DNA of 64,000 bases from Elusimicrobia bacterium UBA6262 (GTDB lineage: Bacteria > CAYTYR01 > UBA6262): contig DJVG01000034.1 in assembly GCA_002441095.1 (NCBI GenBank), positions 61,072-125,071 on the forward strand, read 5' to 3'. This document shows, one piece after another, positions 1,766-21,996 of this stretch. The translations under genes were made by a program, and so were the position numbers. The notes under the pieces were generated by a model. That model was not told where the DNA came from, made no database searches, and was given only the letters and a program-made list of their open reading frames with translations. Position 1 is the first letter of the stretch. Every line of letters begins with the position of its first letter.

Positions 1766-2802
1766 GCTTTTGCTCCCTTTTTAAAAAGGTCGATATTTTC
1801 CTTAACCCAATTTACCAGATTAGTTATTCCTTCTTTGGGCATTACTTTCGCTTCCCATTTTAAATTTTGTTTAACCTTGGCCGTATCGCAGATAAAATAC
1901 CTGAGGTCACCGACCCGGTCAGGACAATAATTTACTGGTATTTTGCGGCCGAGGATTTCCTGCAATACCTCAATGCATTCCAGCAGGGAAATGGCGGTTT
2001 TTGTATTGCCGCCGACATTGTATATCCCCGGTTTTCTATTATTATAAAAGGCATCAAAAGCCGCGCACAGATCAGTAGCATACAGGATGTCCCTTATTTG
2101 CTTACCGGTCCCATAGATATTGATTGGCTCACCCAGTAAGGCCCGGATAGAAAAATTTGCCACCCAGCCATGGTCTTCTCCTCCTAATTGCCTGGGGCCA
2201 TACAATCCAGTCAGACGGAAACTGGCAGCCTCAATTCCATACGTGTCAATATAAGTTTGGATATACAAGTCTGCCGACCGCTTGGAAGCATGCAGCGGAG
2301 TTAATATTCCTTCGACAGTGGGGTGTTCTTCATTTATCGTCTCGGGATCCCTGGTATAGCGGGTTTTTCCCTCTTTTAAAGTCTCGTTAATTTTATTTCC
2401 GTAAACGTGAATGGTGGCGCAGGAAACCATCGGTATTTTATGCCGGCGGGCTATTTCCAGCACATTAAAGGTCCCGATGACGTTTGAAGTAAAATCGAGT
2501 TGGGGATCTTCCACGCTAATGGTGACTGCCGGCTGAGCCGCGGTATGAATGATAAAATCACAGCCTTTAGCTGCTTTTTCCAGCTGATCATAGTCCCGGA
2601 TATCCTGTTTGAGCATTTCTACGCCCATTTTTTTCAATAGTTCCCAATTATAATCCCTGGCTTTCCCCACAGCATATCCCGTGCGCATCAATTCATACTT
2701 AGTCATGTTATCATAAGCTATGACCTGGGCACCCTTCTTAATATAGTATTCACAGACATGAGAGCCAATAAATCCGCATCCTCCAGTCACTAAAACTTTC
2801 AT
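1762..2802 (-). CDS. NAD-dependent epimerase/dehydratase (extended SDR)
   Basis: VLVTGGCGFIGSH Rossmann motif and YxxxK signature; overlaps its neighbours by 4 bp and 1 bp, consistent with an operon. Confidence 0.75.
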   Translation of the reverse strand: MKVLVTGGCGFIGSHVCEYYIKKGAQVIAYDNMTKYELMRTGYAVGKARDYNWELLKKMGVEMLKQDIRDYDQLEKAAKGCDFIIHTAAQPAVTISVEDPQLDFTSNVIGTFNVLEIARRHKIPMVSCATIHVYGNKINETLKEGKTRYTRDPETINEEHPTVEGILTPLHASKRSADLYIQTYIDTYGIEAASFRLTGLYGPRQLGGEDHGWVANFSIRALLGEPINIYGTGKQIRDILYATDLCAAFDAFYNNRKPGIYNVGGNTKTAISLLECIEVLQEILGRKIPVNYCPDRVGDLRYFICDTAKVKQNLKWEAKVMPKEGITNLVNWVKENIDLFKKGAKA

Positions 2803-4016
2803 TAATTTCCCCCTTTATCGTTATTTTTCATATCATCCTGCACCCCATATTGTTTCTCCCTGCTGCTGGTATCATAGCCGCGGCAGCTCTGGCATAGATA
2901 CGGGACTGGCCCGTTTTTCTTATTAACGCTGGCGCGGGTTTTCCTATACCGCGGTTTATTCCAGATCTGCTTAAAATCCTCTTCATATAAATTACCCAAA
3001 GCATCTTCCTTCAATTTTATCCGGTTGTTGGACATGAGCAAAGCGCAGTCCAATAGGGCTGAACCATCGATCATAATGTAAGGCTGCAGCCATTTAGCGC
3101 AATAGTCAATACTGGCGCAATTATTTGAAGTATGCGACCAGATCAGGTTAATATTGTATTTTTTGGCTAACTGGTTTGATGCTTCGATGATCTCGGGCGG
3201 GATACTACTGATATTCAGGTGATCGATCTCCGGAAAACTTAATAAGCCCACCACCTGGACATCAGTAAGCTTCCCTAAATTTACGTCAAGTTCATGCACT
3301 AATTCCAGCAACCTGGGTATTTCTCCAACATTATCTTTCATAGCTATCAGCCGGAAGAAGATATAAGGGAAAGGTGTCTTTTTTTCCTGTTTGATCTTTT
3401 TTAGAGCCCTTAAATTAGTAATGACCCTGTCAAAATTTGCGCCGACTCTTATCTTCTCGTATATCGCCTTAGAGGCAGCATCTAACGAGACCTCTATCCT
3501 TTCCACATTCAGGTCGATTATTTTTTCCACAAAATCTTCCTTGAACAGGTCAAAGCTTTCCACAAACATGGTATTGACATTTTTTTTGTTCAGATAGTCC
3601 AGCATTTTGAAGAATTCCTTGTTCAAAAATCCCGTGCCCTCTCCGGTCACATTAATATACCGTAGTTTGGGGAATTGATCTATTATTTTTTTAAACTGCT
3701 CAAAAGTCATATCCTGGTGACGATATTTTTCGTCCTTCCAATAGGTGTGCTCGCACATAACGCAACGCAAGTAACATTTGGTCGTTATCTCAATTTCCAA
3801 TTCTTTAGGATACGGGGCCAAAGCCGGGAATCTTTTAAAGAGCCAGTCAAACTTACCGCCATCTATATCCCTGACCCAAAGCTGGCTCCAGACCAGGTTA
3901 TAGGCCTTTCTCCATCTTCCTTTTTTCAAAAAATACCAGACCTCATCCCAATGCTTGGTATAAAAATTACGGATTCCCTTAATTTTCCTAAACATTTTAT
4001 TGATCGGATTAGACAT
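2802..4016 (-). CDS. radical SAM domain protein
   Basis: CYLRCVMC carries the CxxxCxxC cluster motif; cysteine-rich C-terminus (CQSCRGYD). Confidence 0.65.
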   Translation of the reverse strand: MSNPINKMFRKIKGIRNFYTKHWDEVWYFLKKGRWRKAYNLVWSQLWVRDIDGGKFDWLFKRFPALAPYPKELEIEITTKCYLRCVMCEHTYWKDEKYRHQDMTFEQFKKIIDQFPKLRYINVTGEGTGFLNKEFFKMLDYLNKKNVNTMFVESFDLFKEDFVEKIIDLNVERIEVSLDAASKAIYEKIRVGANFDRVITNLRALKKIKQEKKTPFPYIFFRLIAMKDNVGEIPRLLELVHELDVNLGKLTDVQVVGLLSFPEIDHLNISSIPPEIIEASNQLAKKYNINLIWSHTSNNCASIDYCAKWLQPYIMIDGSALLDCALLMSNNRIKLKEDALGNLYEEDFKQIWNKPRYRKTRASVNKKNGPVPYLCQSCRGYDTSSREKQYGVQDDMKNNDKGGN

Positions 4017-5904
4017 TATCTACCTCAGCTATTTCGGTTATTAATATGCTTTTTGGTTTAAGCGTGAACCGCTGCAACAACTTGCCTTTATACATAACAA
4101 TTTTCTCCTCCTCTTTAGAAGCATCATTAAGCAATATTAGTTTCTCATCGACATGCATGATATATATTCCCGTTCCCGGCTCGCCATAAAGATATAGCGG
4201 AGCCCAGGGATATTGCTGGTCCTTATTACAAAGGTAAGGCCACAATGTCCGGGCAAATGCTTTAACCTTCAGATAAGGGATACTGATCCGATATCCTTCG
4301 CCATACTGTTCGTAACTTGCAGTCTCTCCGCAAGACAAATAAATTCCGCCAGATTTTACCCAATCCAGTACTAAGTCCTGGGTCAGGCTGTGGCCATAAG
4401 GATGGCTATAGCTGAATATAAACCGGTAGTCATCAAGGATATTATCCTGCACTAAGGTGTCATCGATTATATCTAAATCTATAGAGGACCGTAAATTACT
4501 GGCTAAAGCCAGATTAAGGTTCAAGGACCCCGGTTCCAGGGCTGCGGAATCAGCACTGACCAGCAAAGCGGCTTCCACTCTTCTCGAACCATTGACCAGG
4601 TAAGGGTAATTATTGGCCAGGTTCTTGGCTACCTCGCTTGGCCGCCCAAGAGGGATACAGTTATTGCTTTTCCCGGTGCAAGACACTCTTGTACCATAAT
4701 CTATCCCGAATAATGTTTTAAAATACAAACCCTCTATATCTCCGGAGGCATAATCAAAGACCCTCATAACTACTTCATCAGGCGCGGTTTCTATGGTTTC
4801 TTCAGTCTCTATCGCGGCATGATAATGTTTAGCCGCCGTTGATAACAAGCTCTTATTGGAAAAACTTTCAGCGTAATTACTGCCTAAATTTGTAATCCTC
4901 ACACCGGCATTAAGCTCTCCAGCCAGCTTGGCCTGGCCGGCGAAATCCGCTCCGGTAATCACATCCCCATATCCCCCGGTAACCAGGTAAACAGGTTTCC
5001 CCGGAAAAAATTGTTTGGTCAATATCAGCCATTTTCTGGCATATGCAGTCATAGTTTGCATATACCATCTGACAAAGGTCAGATAATGGTTGCGTCCCGA
5101 GATGTCCTTAAGATCCCTATTCAGTAGCCGGTTTTCATACCATTGCTCTAAATTCCTGGTTACCGGCTGGTCCAGGGCAAATAGCTCATGCCAAATTTTC
5201 CTGAAAACCTTATATAAAAGATCTTGGTGCAGGTTAATCTTCTTTATCGGCCAATCAATATTATCCCAAGACGCATAAGCTGTACCCCAGTCCTTATTCA
5301 AGTTATCCAATATCACATATTTCTGAGTGCAATAATTGACAAAATCCTGCCGGGCATACTGGTCATTGCACCACCACCCGCTATGTTTATGCCCCTGGCG
5401 GTTAATCCCATCTGATGAGGGATAGATGGCTTCACCCCAGACACCGCTAATCCCTATCAGCACGCTTTCTATAACTTCATTCTGGTCATACCGCTCAGCG
5501 ATCATCCTGATGAATTTTTCAATATACTCAGGTAAAAAAGGATTCCAGATGGATTGGATATCGCATTCCTGCCCATGTTCAAGGCACTTGGCAAATACTG
5601 ACTGGGAAGAATCACTGAACCATTCAGGTATTGAATAATTGGGTCCTAAAATTATAAAAGGCACCCATTTTAGTTTATGCGCAATGATTTTTTTTACCAC
5701 TTCATCGTAAGCGCTGAAATCAAGACAGCCTTTTACCGGTTCGATCATTGACCAGTAAACATACGATTGGAGTGAAGTAATGCCATATTTTTTCACTTCT
5801 TCATAAACGCTGTCCGCCAGCAGTTCCGGTTTTACCCTGCCGAACGCCTGCCATTGCTGGATGATATGGGGTTTAGCCGCTATTTTCTGAGATGGAGTTG
5901 ACAT
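4009..5904 (-). CDS. glycoside hydrolase family 42-like protein (beta-galactosidase-like TIM barrel plus trimerisation-type domain)
   Basis: 631 aa; N-terminal YVYWSMIEP...WGEAIYP TIM-barrel-like segments and a GH42M-like central region (ALLVSADSAALEP...DLDIIDD). Assigned by overall resemblance only. Confidence 0.4.
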   Translation of the reverse strand: MSTPSQKIAAKPHIIQQWQAFGRVKPELLADSVYEEVKKYGITSLQSYVYWSMIEPVKGCLDFSAYDEVVKKIIAHKLKWVPFIILGPNYSIPEWFSDSSQSVFAKCLEHGQECDIQSIWNPFLPEYIEKFIRMIAERYDQNEVIESVLIGISGVWGEAIYPSSDGINRQGHKHSGWWCNDQYARQDFVNYCTQKYVILDNLNKDWGTAYASWDNIDWPIKKINLHQDLLYKVFRKIWHELFALDQPVTRNLEQWYENRLLNRDLKDISGRNHYLTFVRWYMQTMTAYARKWLILTKQFFPGKPVYLVTGGYGDVITGADFAGQAKLAGELNAGVRITNLGSNYAESFSNKSLLSTAAKHYHAAIETEETIETAPDEVVMRVFDYASGDIEGLYFKTLFGIDYGTRVSCTGKSNNCIPLGRPSEVAKNLANNYPYLVNGSRRVEAALLVSADSAALEPGSLNLNLALASNLRSSIDLDIIDDTLVQDNILDDYRFIFSYSHPYGHSLTQDLVLDWVKSGGIYLSCGETASYEQYGEGYRISIPYLKVKAFARTLWPYLCNKDQQYPWAPLYLYGEPGTGIYIMHVDEKLILLNDASKEEEKIVMYKGKLLQRFTLKPKSILITEIAEVDNV

Positions 5905-6665: not shown

Positions 6666-7853
6666 CTATTGAGTTTTTATGTGCTCTAATAAATGCCGCC
6701 ATTTTCCTTTGGCCTGGTCTGCATCCAGTTCATCTTTTAGGGTATCGGCAATCCTAATTTCTTCAGGTTTTGTAACCTTCTTGATAAAACCAGTTGGTTC
6801 GGCGTCAAATAACAAAGCATCCAGATAGTCTGCGTGCCGGTGTTTTAACTGCAGCAGGGGATATAAATAATATGAGGGTATCCCGAGTGCAGCACTGCAA
6901 AAATTAGCCGAAGAAAAAAATGAAAATACCGCCTTTATTCTTCCGGCATTAAAAATGATCACTTTCTCCAGATATTCTTTTTGGTCGATCATCGTGATCC
7001 CGGCCAGAGAAACACCCTGGTAATCGTCCTGGGTGTCATGCGGATGCCATTTCATAAACAGCTGATTAGCGGGATAAGCTGCTCTTATTCTGCCTAAAAC
7101 TTCATTCATGATCGAGCTGAATCGTTCCCTTTCGGGGATATACGTCACGAGATTATGCCCTATAAACAGGATCGTATCTTCAGGCAGGGATAATACTTGC
7201 TCTTGATCACTGAATTTTATCTGGTCCAGGGTCAAAGACATTTTTTCGTATTCTGATTTATATCCTGGCGGACTGGAACGGTTAAAAAATATCTCTTTAG
7301 CAAACATAGCAGTCCCTAACAGCCTGTTGCCGATATTAACACTGCCGGGGACATATTGATACCGGAGCATCCGGCCATAGAATAGCAAAGAATAAAAGGA
7401 AAGCGCCAGGGACCGCCACAGGGATGTTTTTATATTTCCCAGGAGATTGTATTTCAACGGATTTAACTGATAAACCAGGTGATAGGATTTAATCCGGTAA
7501 TGCTTCTTTCTCAGTTCATCGATATGGCGGTAAAGATTCAGGCAAGACAATTCAGAATCATCAAAAAAGAAAAATACCGATTCTTTTGGGATCTCTATCT
7601 TCTTTATTGCCTGCTTATGCCTGATGGCCTGCTTTAATCCTTTAATTACATTCTTCTCATAATTGCAATACGGCAGATGATGCACCCGGTCAAAGTAATC
7701 GCCCAGCCTAAGCTGATCATATTTATAAAGCTGGGGATAATGGGTGATCAGCAGTTCAAACTTGATATCCTTGTCCAGTTCACGCATTAACTGCGTCAGG
7801 CCTAGCGAAATAATGATATCCACCTGCCTGATAGCGTGAAAATAAAAAATCAT
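6666..7853 (-). CDS. hypothetical protein; candidate CMP-sugar-dependent GT-B glycosyltransferase
   Basis: 395 aa with no TM. WHPHD is followed about 43 aa later by FSFFSS, which resembles the HP...SS arrangement of sialyl/Kdo-transferases. Weak inference. Confidence 0.3.
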   Translation of the reverse strand: MIFYFHAIRQVDIIISLGLTQLMRELDKDIKFELLITHYPQLYKYDQLRLGDYFDRVHHLPYCNYEKNVIKGLKQAIRHKQAIKKIEIPKESVFFFFDDSELSCLNLYRHIDELRKKHYRIKSYHLVYQLNPLKYNLLGNIKTSLWRSLALSFYSLLFYGRMLRYQYVPGSVNIGNRLLGTAMFAKEIFFNRSSPPGYKSEYEKMSLTLDQIKFSDQEQVLSLPEDTILFIGHNLVTYIPERERFSSIMNEVLGRIRAAYPANQLFMKWHPHDTQDDYQGVSLAGITMIDQKEYLEKVIIFNAGRIKAVFSFFSSANFCSAALGIPSYYLYPLLQLKHRHADYLDALLFDAEPTGFIKKVTKPEEIRIADTLKDELDADQAKGKWRHLLEHIKTQ

Positions 7854-10383: not shown

Positions 10384-11103
10384 TTATTGATTAGGCTTAA
10401 TACCATGTTCACTAATAAGTTTTTCCGACAACCATAAATCCAGCTCATCATGTATATCAATAAAAGGTAGTTCTTCGTTATTTATAACAACTTCTACGTT
10501 GTTTCCCAGCCGCCGGCCCTGTTTAATGAACTCTGACCTGGTCGCACAAGCTAATCCAGTATCTTCCCTGTATAATGGTTCTCTTTTCTGCCGGGGCCCA
10601 TACTGCAAATCTGGCGCTAAGCGGACCATTTTCCCATCAACTCGGCGCCAGTAGTTTTTGTGGGTTTTAGTCACTACGAAGACCGAATCCAAGTTTGGGT
10701 CAGAGAGGATCTTTTGCACTGTTTCCTGCAGCATATACCTGGACCGGAATATGTCGGTTAATTGCAGAAATACCACTACATCGGCCTTATACTGCTCATT
10801 TTTCTCCAGCCATTCAACGCCGTGTTTAAGCACTGCTTCCGTAGTTGTGTCATCCTGGGCCAATTCAGCCGGCCTAATAAAAGGGATCTCGGCGCCATAA
10901 TTCCTTGCAATCTGAGCTATTTCCTGGTCATCGGTTGAAACGATGACACGATCGATCAAAGCGCATTGTTTAGCAGCTTCGATAGTGTAGGCGATCAGCG
11001 GCTTGCCGGCTAACAGCTTAATATTTTTTCTGGGTAATCCTTTCGACCCGCCCCGGGCCGGGATTATAGCTACTACTTGAAGCTTATTTTTCTCATTTGT
11101 CAT
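10384..11103 (-). CDS. CMP-sugar (acylneuraminate/Kdo-type) cytidylyltransferase
   Basis: VAIIPARGGSKGLPRKNIKLLAGKPLI is the canonical NeuA/PseF/KdsB-family P-loop. Confidence 0.8.
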   Translation of the reverse strand: MTNEKNKLQVVAIIPARGGSKGLPRKNIKLLAGKPLIAYTIEAAKQCALIDRVIVSTDDQEIAQIARNYGAEIPFIRPAELAQDDTTTEAVLKHGVEWLEKNEQYKADVVVFLQLTDIFRSRYMLQETVQKILSDPNLDSVFVVTKTHKNYWRRVDGKMVRLAPDLQYGPRQKREPLYREDTGLACATRSEFIKQGRRLGNNVEVVINNEELPFIDIHDELDLWLSEKLISEHGIKPNQ

Positions 11104-12448
11104 TGTTTTTCCACCAGTCAGAGATCAATTGTTCAGCTACCTGGAAATCGTTTGCTTTACTGACATTAAGCATATGGATCAGCCCTTCGATCTCCAGCAT
11201 TCCTACTTTGGGCCCTAATCTTTCACCTCTGCGGATAAATTCGCTGTAGGTAGCCGTGCACAAGCCCGAAATCCCGATATGCAAAGGGTTTTTGTATTTA
11301 CTCGGGACAAAACCTTCATCCAGCCGTACCAGCTTGCCTTCTTCTTCGCGCCAGCAGGATTTATATTCCGGAATAGCCGGTAAAACACTGTCAAAGCCTT
11401 CTTCTACCAGCATCCTGATGGTTTGATCGATGATATTTTTTGGCCGGAAAGGATAGGTACTGCTTAAGTATACGACCACATCAGGGATGATCGCCTGCTG
11501 CTCTAAAACCTCCACCGTATATTTCAGTATTTCCTCTATTTCAATATAATCCTGTGAAAATTCCGGCGGCCTTTTCAGGCAGATTATTTTCTTATGTTTC
11601 TTGGCCAGATTGATATATTCATCATTATCGCAGGTTAAAACTATCTGCTTTATATAACGGGAAGCCAAAGCCCGTTCAATGGTATAATCCAATAGCGGCC
11701 GTCCGCCTAAACTAGCGATCTCCCCTTTCAACGGGATAACTGCCACACAATTTAGCTTCTCCGGATCAAGATTTTTATTTAGATGTCCATTTTCAAAAGT
11801 TTCCAGTATCCCCACTATTTTGCGGCATCTTTCCTCATCGGAGCTTTGATGTATCCCATGATAGTGGTAGACACTGGCTTCGGGTTCATAGATTATTTTA
11901 TAACCCTGGGTTAAGACCTGCTTCCCCCAAACCCGGTCTTCAATATTTGTAACTTGCTCATCAAACGGTATTTTTTCCCATACTGACCGCTTGATCAAAC
12001 TATTGGCATTATGAAAAAACGGATCCTTGATCTGCACCTTGCGGTCAAGTCCAAAAGTAATAAGCAGGTCCCGTTTATCAAAATCACTGCTATATGATAA
12101 GGGTTCTTGCCGGCCATATACCCCGGCAACATCAGGAGGAATAATACTATTAACAAGGTTAGATAACCATTTGTTATTAGTAGGAATGCAATGCCCGGAA
12201 AGACAGCAAATATATTCCCCTTTTGACTGCTTAATACCGTAATTGATAGCTTTACCTGGCTTAAAATCGTTTAGCGAAACAATATTTACATTATACAGTT
12301 TAGCCTTATCAATAGTCTTATCTGTGCTCTGATTATCAACCAGGATCACTTCGAAATCCTGGAAATCCTGCTTAAAAACAGCTGCCAGGCAGGAAGAGAT
12401 CCATCTTTCTTCATTTTTGGTCCTGATAATAATAGAAACTTTTGGCAT
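11093..12448 (-). CDS. fusion protein: N-terminal GT2 glycosyltransferase plus C-terminal cytidylyltransferase-like domain with a degenerate P-loop
   Basis: N-terminus VSIIIRTKNEER...FEVILVDNQSTD (GT2). The C-terminal half (VAVIPLKGEIASLGGRPLLDYTIERA...) is paralogous to the downstream cytidylyltransferase but lacks RGGSKG..KN. Confidence 0.7.
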   Translation of the reverse strand: MPKVSIIIRTKNEERWISSCLAAVFKQDFQDFEVILVDNQSTDKTIDKAKLYNVNIVSLNDFKPGKAINYGIKQSKGEYICCLSGHCIPTNNKWLSNLVNSIIPPDVAGVYGRQEPLSYSSDFDKRDLLITFGLDRKVQIKDPFFHNANSLIKRSVWEKIPFDEQVTNIEDRVWGKQVLTQGYKIIYEPEASVYHYHGIHQSSDEERCRKIVGILETFENGHLNKNLDPEKLNCVAVIPLKGEIASLGGRPLLDYTIERALASRYIKQIVLTCDNDEYINLAKKHKKIICLKRPPEFSQDYIEIEEILKYTVEVLEQQAIIPDVVVYLSSTYPFRPKNIIDQTIRMLVEEGFDSVLPAIPEYKSCWREEEGKLVRLDEGFVPSKYKNPLHIGISGLCTATYSEFIRRGERLGPKVGMLEIEGLIHMLNVSKANDFQVAEQLISDWWKNNDK

Positions 12449-12464
12449 AACCTACCTCTATTGG

Positions 12465-13388
12465 CTAACGGTTAGATATGATTTTCGATATTGCTTCCAA
12501 CTGTTTAGCTAGTATGGCAAAATCCTTAAAATTAAGCGCCTGTAAAGGGTCAACCCAGGCTTTTTCAGGGTTCGGGTGAACCTCGATCAATAATCCATTG
12601 GCCCCAGCGGCAATAGCCGCCCGGGAAATAGCCGCGACATAGGCCCGTTTGAAGGTGGCGTGACTGGGATCCACAAAGACTGGGACCGAAGGTGCATATT
12701 CCTTGAGCGCGGGAATCGCCTGGATATCGATAATGGCCCTGGATTCAACATTATGGGTATGAGGCGCCACTATTCCCCGTTCACAAAAGACGAAATTATG
12801 CTTTCCCCTGGCTTCAAAATGTTCCCCTACCCCCAGCAGGGAGCGCAGGCTTTCTCCATAGTGACGCTTGATCATCACTGGCTTATCTGTAGTACACAAA
12901 GCCTCGATCAGGTCCATATTAAACATATGCCGGTACCCGATCTGGAACATATCAACATATTTGGACATTATGGGCAATGAGTCAGCATAGACGATCTCTG
13001 AAATGATTGGTAACCCGTATTTTTCCCCGGCTTCTTTGAAATAGGCAAAACGTTTCTCCGCCCTTTGGAACAGTTCATTCTTGGGCATTATTTCCTTGCG
13101 TTCCTTGCTTTTTTCATTAGTATCCGAGTCAGCCACGCCAATAGGATCGCCATAAGGGAAAGTCAGCGGCTTAAAAATACCGCCGCGCAGCATGGTAGCC
13201 CCGGCCTCTTTTACCGCCTTAGCCACCTCGAATATTTGCGTCTTGCTTTCTACCGTGCAGGGGCCGGCCATCAGGACGATCTTATCTCCGCCCAGGTCAA
13301 TATCCTTAACTTTAATTTCCCGCCGGTAGTCTTTTCTGCTTACCAACGGGATATTATTCTGTAAATCATTTTGTGAAATATCTTTCAT
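12465..13388 (-). CDS. DAHP synthase / Kdo8P synthase family (type I-beta) PEP-aldolase, DAHPS-like
   Basis: [16 protein letters not shown] and EVHPNPEKA motifs of the I-beta family. The loop reads KPLTFPY rather than the DAHPS KPRTSPY. Confidence 0.7.
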
Positions 13389-13397
13389 CTCTGCTCC

Positions 13398-14186
13398 TTA
13401 TGGTTTTTTTATCCAATTATGCTGCGGATCTTCGGCCCCGACCAGTTTTTTACCCTCTCCCGAAAGGAAAAAAAGATAATGCAGGTTATATCCCGGCCCG
13501 GCGGCGATCTGGTGATAACCCCAAGGCATAAAAGTGATTGAATTCTGCTCCAGGAATATCAATTCATTAATACCTCTTTCCGGTGAATAAAAACGTTCCA
13601 AACCCCAGCCCTGCGGCTTATCAGTACTAAAATAATATAATTCCTCGTGTAAGGATTCCTGCGGCAAGTTACTAACCTCATGCCTGTGAGGCGGAGTCCC
13701 GGACCAGTTCCCGGGAAAATTAATGGTCTCACCCACTAACATATTGACTGCCGGCGATTCAGGACCGATGATCATTCTCACTTCGCGCGACCAGTTATCC
13801 TTGCCCACGATAATCGGTTTTATTTTATCCGGGGTAAAGATGGCAGTTTCAGTCTGGACTTGGCAGTGTGACCGGCAAACCGCGACTAAAGCCTGTTTTC
13901 CCTTCAATATGAATGCAGTTTGCGCAGGGATGTATATCCCGGTCGGCAACCCGCTGAACACATCCTTACGCTGGCCAAGATCCGCATATTCCTTGCCCTT
14001 TATGCTTAGGGAACATGATCCTGCCAGGACCACCAGCCCGGTCTCAGCATCTTCCTCCTTAAACTCCAGTTCTTGCGCAGTAGTTATGTTAACTATTGCG
14101 AATCCTTTGATATATTTAAATAGCCCCCCCGGATCAACCTCATTAAGGCCCGGTTTTAGGGTCAACCGCTGATCAAATTTTCCCAT
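13398..14186 (-). CDS. IolB/KduI-family cupin ketol-isomerase
   Basis: 262 aa; NWSGTPPHRHE...ESLHEELYYF resembles 5-deoxy-glucuronate isomerase (IolB). Confidence 0.55.
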   Translation of the reverse strand: MGKFDQRLTLKPGLNEVDPGGLFKYIKGFAIVNITTAQELEFKEEDAETGLVVLAGSCSLSIKGKEYADLGQRKDVFSGLPTGIYIPAQTAFILKGKQALVAVCRSHCQVQTETAIFTPDKIKPIIVGKDNWSREVRMIIGPESPAVNMLVGETINFPGNWSGTPPHRHEVSNLPQESLHEELYYFSTDKPQGWGLERFYSPERGINELIFLEQNSITFMPWGYHQIAAGPGYNLHYLFFLSGEGKKLVGAEDPQHNWIKKP

Positions 14187-14187
14187 A

Positions 14188-16977
<2,790 letters not shown>

Positions 16978-20149: not shown

Positions 20150-21115
20150 TTAAAGCTCTTTATCCAATATCGCTTTGAAATTCCTGGCTGTAAAATCAAG
20201 GATGACTTTGTTACCCTGTACCGATACAGTATGGTTATAAACCAGTTGGGAATAAGCATACTTTCGCTTGATCACTTCACCCAGGAACTGGGCATCATTC
20301 TGCATTAACTTTACCTTTGCCGGATCACTGCATTTAAAGAAGAGCTTCCCCTTGACCTCATCATCAGTCACCAGGCTGAAGGTCAGTAATAATGATTCCA
20401 GCCACTGGCCAGACAGCAGTACTACCATCTTATTATCAGTTTCCCATTTTTTCAATTCTTGCGAAAACCGGCGGCTCTGGTTGTTTATAAATATATAACC
20501 TTCATAGCCTTTGGGTATCGCGCTTGACAACTCTTTAAAAGCCGCCGTCTGTACAACATTGCTGCCGGTTCGTGCTGCTGCCAGGCAGGTGGAAACAAGT
20601 CCGCTATTACTGGCGAGTATGACCCGCCCTTCCTGTACAGAAAAAGCCGTCAGGCGGTCATTGCGCTCAGCTTCGCTGTCAAAATATATCTCCTGCTGGT
20701 TGCTTTCCTTCTTGCTCCAGCCAGGATTAATACTGACGAAATTCCCTAAATTATCGATCAGGAACTTATTAAATCTTTCCTTTTCCCCTTCCAGGTCAGG
20801 GAACACCACTAATATATTTTTCCAGCCTGCCTCAGCCGGGAAGCTCCCTCCGGCAACCTGTTTAAAAGTGAATTGCTTGAACAAGTATGACAGCAGCAGG
20901 TAATTTGGGTCATCCTGATGCTGCGCTATTTTCCCCTGGTAAGTCTTGATCAGTGAGCGCCAGGCGCTGCTGGTGTTCAGGTTCTTTAAGCTGAACACTA
21001 CTTCCGCATTCTTGGGCAAATAATTGACCAGCTCCGCGGCCAGTCCGGCAGCAGCGCTAAATAAGCAATATAAAACTAATAACCAGACGCTCTTTTTCAT
21101 TGTATTTGCCGCCAT
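20150..21115 (-). CDS. hypothetical secreted protein
   Basis: Signal peptide MKKSVWLLVLYCLFSAAAGLAAE; no recognisable domain. Confidence 0.45.
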   Translation of the reverse strand: MAANTMKKSVWLLVLYCLFSAAAGLAAELVNYLPKNAEVVFSLKNLNTSSAWRSLIKTYQGKIAQHQDDPNYLLLSYLFKQFTFKQVAGGSFPAEAGWKNILVVFPDLEGEKERFNKFLIDNLGNFVSINPGWSKKESNQQEIYFDSEAERNDRLTAFSVQEGRVILASNSGLVSTCLAAARTGSNVVQTAAFKELSSAIPKGYEGYIFINNQSRRFSQELKKWETDNKMVVLLSGQWLESLLLTFSLVTDDEVKGKLFFKCSDPAKVKLMQNDAQFLGEVIKRKYAYSQLVYNHTVSVQGNKVILDFTARNFKAILDKEL

Positions 21116-21996
21116 ATATTATGCAAATCCTTTACCTGGTAATTGATCTCTACGAAATTAGCCAATGAACTTACTTCTCCTTCATAAGCCAAGCCCTCCC
21201 CCAGGAGCAACCTCATCAGCAGGTTATTCAGGAAAAAAGCATCCAGGCTTATTTTATCGACATCAGCAATGTACCTGGCAGTAAATGACATCTTTCCTCT
21301 GACCTGGTCGGCGCTGACCAAATTGCCGTTTACCTGGACATATTCGACTGAATCAATGGCCGGGAAAAAAGCAAAACTGTTCTTCTGCTCAAAATACTTG
21401 ATCAGAACGCTTAACTCCCTTTGCCTGTTAGGAATATAGATATTCAGTTCTTCCCTGGCATACGGTTTAAAAATAGCCCTCAAACCGGCTAGCTCAATTG
21501 CCGGCAATGATTCCTGATGAATATTGGCCGCATTCAGGATCATCAGGTTGTTCATTATTTTGAATTGCTTATCCTCTCCGCAGTTAAAACCCCGGGCAGA
21601 AGCTATTTTACAGCCGAGATTAACTAACCGCGTCTTTTTGCCAAGATCAATAATAATATCATAATCAGGCTGTTTGTTTAAACGCGCATAATCCTGGTCA
21701 TACTTCAGGCTGAATAAAATATCCCTGGGCAGTATGGAAATTACTAATTTTTTTACCAGGGCATTATTTAATTGGGGATTAACCGCGGTCATTTTTTGCC
21801 AGAACACATCGAAAAGCTGGGCCGGCCCCGGCTGCTGCCAATCAATGCTCAGCTGGCCGTAAGCCAGGGAATTACCCGGCAAAAACATGAATTTATCTAC
21901 CTGCTTTTGCGGCCAGTTATACCAGACCAAAGCTACTAATAAGAAGCTGGCTGATACAATGCTGATAAAAAAGAAAAGTTTTCTGATGATTTTCAT
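21097..21996 (-). CDS. hypothetical membrane-anchored protein
   Basis: N-terminal TM FFFISIVSASFLLVALVWY; overlaps the downstream ORF by 19 nt. Confidence 0.45.
   Translation of the reverse strand: MKIIRKLFFFISIVSASFLLVALVWYNWPQKQVDKFMFLPGNSLAYGQLSIDWQQPGPAQLFDVFWQKMTAVNPQLNNALVKKLVISILPRDILFSLKYDQDYARLNKQPDYDIIIDLGKKTRLVNLGCKIASARGFNCGEDKQFKIMNNLMILNAANIHQESLPAIELAGLRAIFKPYAREELNIYIPNRQRELSVLIKYFEQKNSFAFFPAIDSVEYVQVNGNLVSADQVRGKMSFTARYIADVDKISLDAFFLNNLLMRLLLGEGLAYEGEVSSLANFVEINYQVKDLHNIWRQIQ

Follow-up and report, generated by a model that had tools for sequence, protein, structure and literature searches.

Synthetases of the cytidylyltransferase (CT) fold are obligate domain-swapped dimers, in which an arm of one subunit enters the active site of its partner (PMC6580227). 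In their phosphate-binding loop (P-loop), Arg12, Gly14, Ser15, Lys16 and Lys21 bind the alpha- and beta-phosphates of cytidine triphosphate (CTP), and the K21A substitution abolishes activity; Asn22 binds the ribose hydroxyls and Arg71 selects cytosine (PMC6580227). Activity of NmCSS is unmeasurable in the D209A mutant and absent in R165A, and kcat falls 15,000-fold in D211A (PMC2901514). For glycosyltransferases, the xED base of inverting GT-A enzymes and the concept of a C-terminal metal-binding His (C-His) have been set out, together with a DxH variant in families GT27 and GT60 and DxD-less, metal-independent cases in GT14 and GT6 (PMC7185993). Sialyltransferases usually lack DxD, and the Bacillus subtilis family 2 glycosyltransferase (GT2) SpsA, which is encoded beside a pathway for legionaminic acid (Leg) activated with cytidine monophosphate (CMP), is not the Leg transferase (PMC7439481). 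In COLGALT1, the GT1 domain, which has the GT-A fold, binds nucleotide sugar but plays a structural role only, and is needed for stability or assembly (PMC12003778). Here we analyse a 451-residue protein that joins a GT2 domain to a CT-like domain, encoded at positions 11093-12448 (stop codon 11093-11095) of a 64,000-nucleotide stretch of contig DJVG01000034.1 from Elusimicrobia bacterium UBA6262. This whole stretch is called the window, and all window features given below lie on its minus strand. Both domains of the protein have well-known folds, but a conserved pseudo-cytidylyltransferase on a DxD-less GT2 domain appears to be a new combination, and a literature search found no paper on this fusion or on the gene cassette to which it belongs.

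The closest described fusions differ from this protein in the state of the synthetase half. Helicobacter pylori HP0326 is reportedly a natural PseF-PseG fusion, and a Neisseria meningitidis CMP-N-acetylneuraminic acid (CMP-Neu5Ac) synthetase/alpha-2,3-sialyltransferase is said to be an engineered synthetase-transferase fusion. Like the window protein, each combines, in one chain, a domain of CMP-sugar synthetase type with one of glycosyltransferase fold, in a pathway resembling that of sialic acid. Both halves of these proteins are active, and the partner with a glycosyltransferase fold is GT-B (PseG) or a sialyltransferase, whereas in the window protein the synthetase half appears to be dead and the partner is GT-A/GT2. 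COLGALT1 (GLT25D1) is similar in having two Rossmann-like domains of GT-A type, of which one is catalytic and the other is not. However, it is eukaryotic and both its domains are of GT type, while the silent domain of the fusion is derived from a nucleotidyltransferase. Enzymes with two GT-A domains (K4CP, PmHS2 and COLGALT1) were also the best whole-chain Foldseek matches to our structural model, but their domain orientation does not match; that of COLGALT1 does not superpose on the model (rmsd > 20 A).

According to Pfam, residues 5-159 of the fusion match Glycos_transf_2 (PF00535; E 1.4e-25, 90.6 bits, cut-off 23.3) and residues 244-355 match CTP_transf_3 (PF02348; E 1.3e-11, 45 bits, cut-off 22.6). 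An initial annotation, made from the DNA sequence of the window, had suggested the latter profile alignment as a check on a degenerate nucleotide-binding loop. The match covers only profile positions 18-122 and, because it starts at position 18, the N-terminal, phosphate-binding-loop part of the model is unmatched. The best NCBIfam model for this half is PseF, with a score far under the cut-off. In an AlphaFold (AF2) model with a mean predicted local distance difference test (pLDDT) of 92.7, both domains have high confidence. With Foldseek, the N-terminal domain (residues 1-200; 11849-12448) has GT-A matches to PcManGT 6yv7, WrtF 9omh, SpsA 1qg8 and TarS 5tzi, in agreement with its PF00535 score above the gathering threshold. 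The C-terminal domain (residues 233-451; 11096-11752) has the alpha/beta/alpha fold with a dimerisation arm, in line with its significant PF02348 match, and resembles synthetases for CMP-Neu5Ac, CMP-pseudaminic acid (CMP-Pse) and CMP-ketodeoxynonulosonic acid (6ifd/6ifi, 1qwj, 1eyr, 9ftb/9ftc and 9t4z; target-normalised TM-score 0.74-0.86). The linker between them (residues 201-232; 11753-11848) consists of one helix (205-218) and a loop, and its pLDDT of 71-78 is the lowest in the model except for the last residue.

It might be supposed that an assembly or frameshift artefact has joined two genes, since Rhodobacterales do have unfused GT2 and CT genes with overlapping ends. We rejected this explanation, whose probability we consider negligible, because of the full-length homologues of the protein, the number of its genome loci and the purifying selection acting on it. 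A search of 5.8 billion proteins gave 3,941 with E <= 1e-5, ordinary GT2 enzymes counted in. The best-scoring 120 of these, to which counts of close relatives refer below, come from independent samples, have 440-494 residues and both Pfam domains, and align over 96-100% of the query at 50-65% identity. In species-representative genomes the fused gene occurs at 39 loci, and all 37 copies that we compared are fused. The database search proposed by the initial annotation has thus found the same architecture across many phyla: it is present in Thermodesulfovibrionales, Nitrospirota, Omnitrophota, candidate phyla radiation (CPR) bacteria, SAR324, Planctomycetes, Rhodospirillales, Magnetococcales, Pelagibacteraceae (SAR11), Prochlorococcus, SAR86, Bacteriovorax and a Thermoplasmatales archaeon. 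An independent metagenome-assembled genome (locus L006) carries a 94% identical orthologue, relative to which the ratio of nonsynonymous to synonymous substitution rates (dN/dS) is 0.05 for the whole gene, 0.035 in its GT2 half and 0.072 in its CT-like half (dS ~0.6). Both halves are under purifying selection. That the linker is modelled as a helix, with moderate confidence, between two confidently predicted domains also speaks against an artefact. Mean pairwise identity in the family is 68% in the N-terminal half, 41% in the linker and 46% in the C-terminal half. When viral collections were searched with the fusion, a phage collection gave short GT2 matches only, and the BFVD viral structures contained nothing with its architecture.

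The C-terminal domain is clearly related to the synthetase encoded immediately downstream (10384-11103; 239 residues), as the initial annotation had claimed: BLASTP aligns the two at 34% identity over 226 residues (E 5e-36). The alignment contains a single eight-residue gap (VAVIPLKG--------EIASLGGRPL in the fusion, VAIIPARGGSKGLPRKNIKLLAGKPL in the neighbour), which coincides exactly with the neighbour's GSKGLPRK loop. The truncated loop of the fusion is I238-P-L-K-G-E-I-A-S-L-G-G-R-P-L252 (11693-11737), and the deletion lies between E243 and I244. The same eight columns are deleted in all 120 close relatives. We also set 37 fused C-domains against 44 stand-alone synthetases from neighbouring genes. 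All 37 have the deletion and none of the 44 does; the latter invariably carry P-A-R-x-G-S-x-x-x-x-x-K-N/P. Column statistics for the two sets identify Ser20 (100%), Lys26 (100%), Asn27 (86%) and Gln172 (80%) as conserved in the stand-alone set only, and the columns of Lys26 and Asn27 are gaps in 100% of the fused domains. In NeuA numbering, Ser15, Lys16, Lys21 and Asn22 are absent. The initial annotation had held that the Arg-Gly-Gly-Ser-Lys and Lys-Asn residues appeared to be lost; this is correct in that the loop is deleted, but the first Arg (Arg12) is conservatively replaced by Lys241, and 118/120 close relatives have K or R at this position. In divergent fused members, it is non-basic (Leu, Met or Gln).

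We considered whether a better alignment might restore the catalytic residues. In the model, DSSP assigns a strand to residues 234-240, a mini-hairpin to 246-251 and a helix from 252 onward. The mini-hairpin corresponds to the post-loop KLLAGKPL hairpin of synthetases, and the deletion therefore lies in the P-loop and not in the following hairpin. A phmmer pairing of IPLKG with IPLKN, at the end of the P-loop of mouse CMAS, would delete the core strand beta-1 and was rejected, given also the clear match of LNCVAVIP to LQVVAIIP. A KdsB-style ungapped pairing (IPARYASTRLPGKPL vs IPLKGEIASLGGRPL) keeps the K...R spacing, but rescues two basic residues at most. We rejected it too, since DSSP puts SLGGRP in the post-loop hairpin, S15, K16 and N22 would still be absent, and divergent members have no basic residue at all. 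Both alternatives are contradicted by the secondary structure of the model and by the Leu, Met or Gln that position 241 holds in divergent members, and no alignment that we considered keeps all catalytic residues in the domain.

The losses extend beyond those listed in the initial annotation, since the positions of both Mg2+-ligand aspartates are changed. At the I-D-I-D/H site of synthetases, where Asp209 and Asp211 of NeuA bind Mg2+, the window protein has L427-N428-V429-S430 (11159-11170). The family consensus is E/D at 428 (acidic in 118/120) and R/G at 430, and divergent members have LRYS or LRCT. Near the C-terminus, nearly all of the 44 stand-alone synthetases carry an acidic D-x-(D/H/N)-x-x-x-D segment, which is found in 0/37 fused domains; these show IEVR, IDIG, LNVS, LRYS or LRCT in its place. 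In the arm, Arg165 and Gln166, which synthetases supply in trans, correspond to S383 and K384 in the window protein. The arm consensus of the fused family is P-R-x-x-K-x-P, with K386 invariant, and the Gln is kept in the stand-alone set only.

Since residues that are experimentally needed for cytidylyl transfer are lost, we infer with good reason that the C-terminal domain is non-catalytic as a cytidylyltransferase; the non-catalytic module proposed by the initial annotation is therefore well supported. The fused proteins are named "glycosyltransferase", "rhamnosyltransferase" or "CMP-N-acetylneuraminic acid synthetase" in databases, and the last of these names is almost certainly wrong for the fused domain. 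The domain could instead still be a cytidylyltransferase, or another CMP-dependent enzyme, with a rebuilt active site. The strong purifying selection on it would be expected in that case, as would the invariance of R335, D353 and K386 and the acidic character of position 428 in most close relatives. We consider this very unlikely, given that the window protein itself has N428 and S430, that all members lack Ser15, Lys16, Lys21 and Asn22, and that K241 and the acidic residue are missing, too, from divergent members. Moreover, an intact CT is almost always supplied in cis, and single-residue losses are crippling in mutational data (PMC2901514, PMC6580227).

Other features of the synthetases (NeuA, PseF, LegF and KdsB) have been kept in residues 233-451, namely the fold, the region of the domain-swapped arm and an Arg-Pro pair. 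The latter, R293-P294 (11567-11572), contains the equivalent of the cytosine-selecting Arg71 of CMP-Neu5Ac synthetases. R293 is kept in 109/120 close relatives, and the residue is found in 92% of fused and 86% of stand-alone copies; because it is kept, it is plausible that some nucleotide binding by the domain remains. Further residues are conserved in the fused family: R335 (in P-F-R-P), D353 and K386 (in the dimerisation arm) occur in 120/120 close relatives and are variable in active synthetases, and G395 and R406 are conserved in 92% and 84%, respectively, of the fused copies. In a neighbour-joining tree, which is crude, the fused C-domains form one clade with no stand-alone member within it. 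The pattern indicates that duplication, fusion and loss took place once and long ago. The nearest outsiders to the clade are NeuA/PseF-like synthetases of the window type, in agreement with the paralogy noted above. When the C-domain alone served as query in an exhaustive search, the matches were fused proteins, fragments and canonical synthetases; as regards loop-deleted CTs standing alone, the search gave doubtful cases only (P0126 and P0246), which may be truncated gene calls.

As a separate observation, ten stand-alone CT-like proteins of 220-250 residues (P0174, P0198, P0202, P0214, P0217, P0222, P0227, P0230, P0250 and P0251) have a full-length loop after strand beta-1 without Ser15, Lys16, Lys21 and Asn22, for example IPVRESDV..EGR...LAGRPL. 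They may be non-canonical or dead cytidylyltransferases of a second class, independent of the fused one.

Judged by its motifs, the GT2 half keeps the features of an inverting GT-A enzyme but has an altered metal/phosphate site, a point absent from the initial annotation. With SpsA, TarS, PcManGT and WrtF it shares the GT-A fold, the nucleotide-binding segment VDNxSTD, the xED base and a C-terminal His. The xED motif is E170-D171 (11936-11941; E170 in 120/120 close relatives, D171 in 119/120), and the candidate C-His is in H195-Y-H197 (11858-11866), within YHYHGIH, of which both His residues occur in 120/120. The DxD of these GT2 enzymes, in contrast, is replaced by S-x-H in every fused member, with loss of the first acidic residue. 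In the window protein the replacement is S84-G85-H86 (12191-12199), which aligns with DCD, DSDD and DAD of solved GT2 structures (K4CP, 6p61 and GalT1). S84 and H86 are each found in 120/120 close relatives, with G or A between them; fusion copies all have LS[GAS]H, whereas D.D or N.D stands at this site in the ordinary GT2 relatives aligned with them. The altered site recalls either GT27 and GT60, with their DxH, or the GT14 and GT6 cases, which lack DxD and are metal-independent. The segments RTKNEERW (N-terminal and family-specific), GRQEP and FFHNANS also set the fused GT2 apart from the four enzymes just named.

The fused gene is closely linked to an intact CMP-sugar synthetase. In the window, the synthetase gene begins with an ATG within the final codons of the fusion gene, so that the two overlap by 11 nt, and the fusion is separated from its upstream gene by a 16-nt spacer with a GAGG-type ribosome-binding site. 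The synthetase has the canonical IIPARGGSKGLPRKN and matches the Aeromonas caviae CMP-Pse synthetase 9ftb (E 5.6e-30), with a nearly identical IIPARGGSK.IPRKNIK segment. Residues 216-219 of this synthetase are D-I-H-D, with His (H218) at the position of the second Mg2+ ligand, D211 of NeuA; its closest relatives beside other fusions likewise have DIHD, DIND or DIGD. For a count of linkage we used 30 fusion loci flanked on each side by 3 kb or more and, as controls, 26 loci centred on ordinary GT2 relatives. A stand-alone, loop-intact synthetase lies less than 5 kb from the fusion in 28/30 loci, less than 200 nt away in 13, and nearly always on the same strand, compared with 0/26 control loci with a stand-alone synthetase within 5 kb.

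The fusion is part of a larger cassette. In transcription order, the window encodes an IolO-like TIM barrel (14188-15000), an IolB/KduI-like cupin (13398-14186), an aldolase of the type-I-beta 3-deoxy-D-arabino-heptulosonate 7-phosphate (DAHP) synthase family (12465-13388), the fusion and the synthetase. These are followed by a NanM-type O-methyltransferase, a Wzx flippase, a 395-residue protein, a methyltransferase, a GH42-like protein and a radical SAM/SPASM protein. At four further loci (L006, L008, L093 and L094), the five core genes are found again, arranged in other orders and followed by different transferases. In SAR11, Prochlorococcus and SAR86 loci, a Gfo/Idh/MocA oxidoreductase between fusion and aldolase replaces the IolB/IolO pair. 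In other lineages, the fusion and CT occur with Ldh_2, GFO, DUF386, 2-hydroxyacid dehydrogenases or HpcH aldolase, and several loci have genes for tailoring nucleoside diphosphate (NDP) sugars upstream (DegT, GFO/IDH/MocA, hexapeptide acetyltransferase, epimerases and UDP-glucose dehydrogenase). Among eight Pfam-labelled loci, no PseG-type gene is listed, and a NeuC-type Epimerase_2 gene is present at the edge of one locus only (L092). The cassette looks like an undescribed CMP-ulosonic acid pathway with a synthase of the DAHP synthase type rather than the NeuB type. Its product is probably an acidic surface sugar not yet described, made by marine and groundwater microbes that are very abundant.

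The cluster also contains a candidate for the CMP-sugar transferase that the initial annotation did not mention, i.e., the 395-residue protein encoded at 6666-7853, of the polysialyltransferase family (GT38-like). The protein itself has no Pfam match, but a 73%-identical homologue matches PF07388 at 36 bits (cut-off 23.3), and a member of that homologue's 90%-identity cluster is labelled 'polysialyltransferase family glycosyltransferase' by NCBI. Its sequence contains SFFSSANFCSAALGIPSY and a KWHPHD segment that we take for the 'HP' motif of sialyltransferases. In the 5.8 billion proteins it has matches in only two clusters, a profile search against sequences in the PDB found nothing, and its structure prediction, from a 2-sequence alignment, has a pLDDT of 37. 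On this evidence, it is seemingly a very divergent GT38-like enzyme. At two of the loci with the five core genes (L093 and L094), the gene after the synthetase encodes a protein resembling GT30 transferases of 3-deoxy-D-manno-octulosonate (Kdo). Because the candidate is GT38-like in the window and GT30-like at these loci, the CMP-sugar transferase appears to be a separate and interchangeable gene. The fusion travels with precursor-forming genes.

Unfused relatives give some indication of how the protein arose. On plasmids of the Rhodobacterales Thalassovita (pAge77, L087), Gemmobacter (p5, L088) and Sulfitobacter (p4SUD7, L089), an S-x-H GT2 gene overlaps a CT gene. This GT2 has ISGHCVP and is 31-36% identical to that of the fusion; the CT keeps LLPMKANSQRVKGKN and SDIDTPED and looks active. 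A 2-hydroxyacid dehydrogenase gene then follows, forming a conserved triad flanked by genes for very large Maf-type (MptE-like) proteins and, in Thalassovita, also by Kdo genes. The plasmid pair thus resembles the fusion in its GT2 subgroup and its linkage to acid-sugar genes, but it consists of two genes and has no second CT adjacent to it. In Pararhizobium, the synthetase adjoining the GT2 gene is a remnant. With the overlapping S-x-H GT2 and loop-intact CT genes of the Rhodobacterales plasmids taken as the ancestral state, the data suggest a history in which a coupled GT2 and active CT became fused, a second CT was recruited or duplicated, and catalysis was then lost in the fused copy. As an aside, the RefSeq start of the Thalassovita CT is an internal Met that cuts off strand beta-1; a longer open reading frame restores MSGSSRCIALLPMK.

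Given these results, our preferred explanation, which we regard as probable rather than secure, is that a non-catalytic, CT-derived dimerisation and ligand-recognition module ties GT2 activity to a CMP-ulosonate cassette. The fusion would be an ancient two-domain protein within a cassette for a CMP-activated sugar acid of the 3-deoxy-ulosonic type, and only its N-terminal, inverting-type GT-A half would likely be catalytic. The C-terminal half would be a pseudoenzyme, derived from the synthetase subfamily to which the gene overlapping its 3' end also belongs. Because the phosphate loop and the Mg2+-binding Asp pair are lost, it would be unable to make CMP-sugar, while retaining its fold, Arg-Pro and dimerisation arm. 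The intact neighbour would make the CMP-sugar, and we infer that the dead domain may dimerise and recognise the cytidine nucleotide and/or the ulosonate, thereby tying GT2 activity to the pathway. Such a role would accord with the obligate dimerisation of synthetases of this fold, whose arm reaches the partner's active site (PMC6580227), and COLGALT1 is a precedent for a GT-A-fold domain with a bound ligand but no catalysis (PMC12003778). The GT2 half might be the transferase of the CMP-sugar, attach a neighbouring sugar or act on a nucleotide-sugar precursor.

Several points weigh against this explanation. The model's predicted TM-score (pTM) of 0.68 leaves the relative orientation of the two domains uncertain. 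With Asn22 and all phosphate contacts lost, nucleotide affinity may be too low, and the domain could be purely structural; conversely, R335, K386 and R406 might rebuild a phosphate site and allow non-canonical catalysis. The partner synthetases are heterogeneous (NeuA-like, KdsB-like and of an ARIGSTRL type), which argues against a single conserved heterodimer, although it would fit recognition of the shared CMP moiety. Finally, the closest unfused S-x-H GT2s, on two Gloeothece plasmids, are encoded in an ordinary exopolysaccharide (EPS) cluster with GT1, GT4 and pyruvyl transferase genes and no synthetase.

In one alternative, essentially the coupling of CMP-sugar synthesis to transfer that the initial annotation had put forward, the dead CT captures a labile CMP-ulosonate from the neighbouring synthetase, possibly as a heterodimer, and hands it to the GT2 half as donor. 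CMP-Kdo is chemically unstable, and such instability would reward channelling; the tight CT linkage, the translational coupling and the retained cytosine-selecting Arg fit this idea too. The loss of DxD would suit a monophosphate donor, as sialyltransferases usually lack this motif (PMC7439481), and a dead/live heterodimer is conceivable because CTs dimerise obligately by domain swapping and share active sites (PMC6580227). However, we think this alternative unlikely, and do not favour it because a dedicated GT38-like or GT30-like transferase is present in the same clusters; the Maf-type proteins of the Rhodobacterales plasmids are additional candidates. We know of no GT2 enzyme that uses a CMP-sugar. 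Partner CTs that come from several subfamilies, the position of the fusion among precursor genes rather than transferase genes, and Gloeothece relatives without a CT nearby are also difficult to reconcile with direct channelling, and the SpsA precedent is negative (PMC7439481). The proposed direct coupling is thus weakened by the separate transferase candidates, the varied partners and this precedent.

Alternatively, the GT2 half could be a nucleotide-sugar hydrolase with water as acceptor, an analogue of PseG, LegG or NeuC that frees an aldose for condensation with phosphoenolpyruvate by the DAHP-synthase-like enzyme; the CT half would then be a relic of an originally bifunctional hydrolase-synthetase, of which HP0326 is reportedly an example. 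This would explain the gene order, with the fusion between or beside synthase and CT, the NDP-sugar tailoring genes upstream in several loci, and the scarcity of PseG-type and Epimerase_2 genes. The IolB- and IolO-like families, moreover, act on free rather than nucleotide-linked sugars. We nonetheless judge the idea improbable. To our knowledge, there is no dedicated NDP-sugar hydrolase with the GT-A fold, DAHP and Kdo 8-phosphate synthases normally take sugar phosphates, Gloeothece S-x-H GT2s occur in ordinary EPS clusters, and the argument depends on gene absence in a small sample. It is possible, if still rather doubtful, that the GT2 half transfers from an NDP-sugar in the ordinary way, adding a residue beside the ulosonate, with the dead CT recognising the acceptor ulosonate or oligomerising. 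The intact xED base and C-His, the standard inverting GT2s among the closest solved structures and the unfused S-x-H relatives in ordinary EPS clusters all accord with this, and the faster evolution of the C-terminal domain (46% vs 68% identity) is expected if it tracks a variable sugar. S-x-H also resembles the metal-binding DxH of GT27 and GT60 (PMC7185993), and COLGALT1 is a precedent (PMC12003778). By itself, however, such a role leaves the CT adjacency and the location in a precursor cassette unexplained, and the CT pocket would have to hold a glycosidically bound residue although it is made to accept a free anomeric hydroxyl.

Some further observations concern genes near the fusion. The oxidoreductase of the SAR11, Prochlorococcus, SAR86 and SAR324-type loci (L011, L014, L019, L023, L031, L033 and L036) fills a stretch of ~1 kb next to the fusion, between it and the DAHP-synthase-like gene, has ~350-370 residues and conserves GCGRVA..HY, FQNRLNP and DGGVINQQAIHH.D. 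Radical SAM/SPASM and B12-binding radical SAM genes recur beside the fusion/CT pair (L002-L005, L092 and L094), and the window has a radical SAM/SPASM gene at 2802-4016. The adjacent gene (4009-5904) encodes a 631-residue GH42/GH14/GH35-like TIM-barrel protein within the biosynthetic cluster. We compared it with the proteins encoded after the fusion in L003 and L004, which turned out to be of a different family: these, of 636-638 residues, are 48% identical to each other, belong to no Pfam family and contain SHGSH and YSSTTIEEALQNRVPVL segments that look GT-B-like by eye. Two overlapping open reading frames within the polysaccharide cluster (20150-21115 and 21097-21996; 321 and 299 residues) match no Pfam or NCBIfam family.

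A more far-reaching possibility, which we offer tentatively, is that the GT2/dead-CT protein performs an essential, unrecognised step toward a new CMP-activated ulosonic, possibly ulosaric, acid, by a reaction that is novel for GT2. The aldolase and the isomerases resembling those of inositol catabolism would then form a pathway found in SAR11, Prochlorococcus, SAR86, Nitrospirota, CPR bacteria and archaea; the S-x-H domain would use a CMP-sugar donor or carry out PseG-like hydrolysis, with the CT pseudoenzyme as a recognition or docking module. If our preferred explanation of a non-catalytic module is true, the family would be a clear natural case of a nucleotidyltransferase that became a pseudoenzyme domain and was kept on a glycosyltransferase for hundreds of millions of years. 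Assay results for the S-x-H GT2 subgroup and its dead CT domain would sharpen automated annotation, and the finding would be of greater interest if the cassette makes a new sugar or the GT2 half carries out a new reaction.

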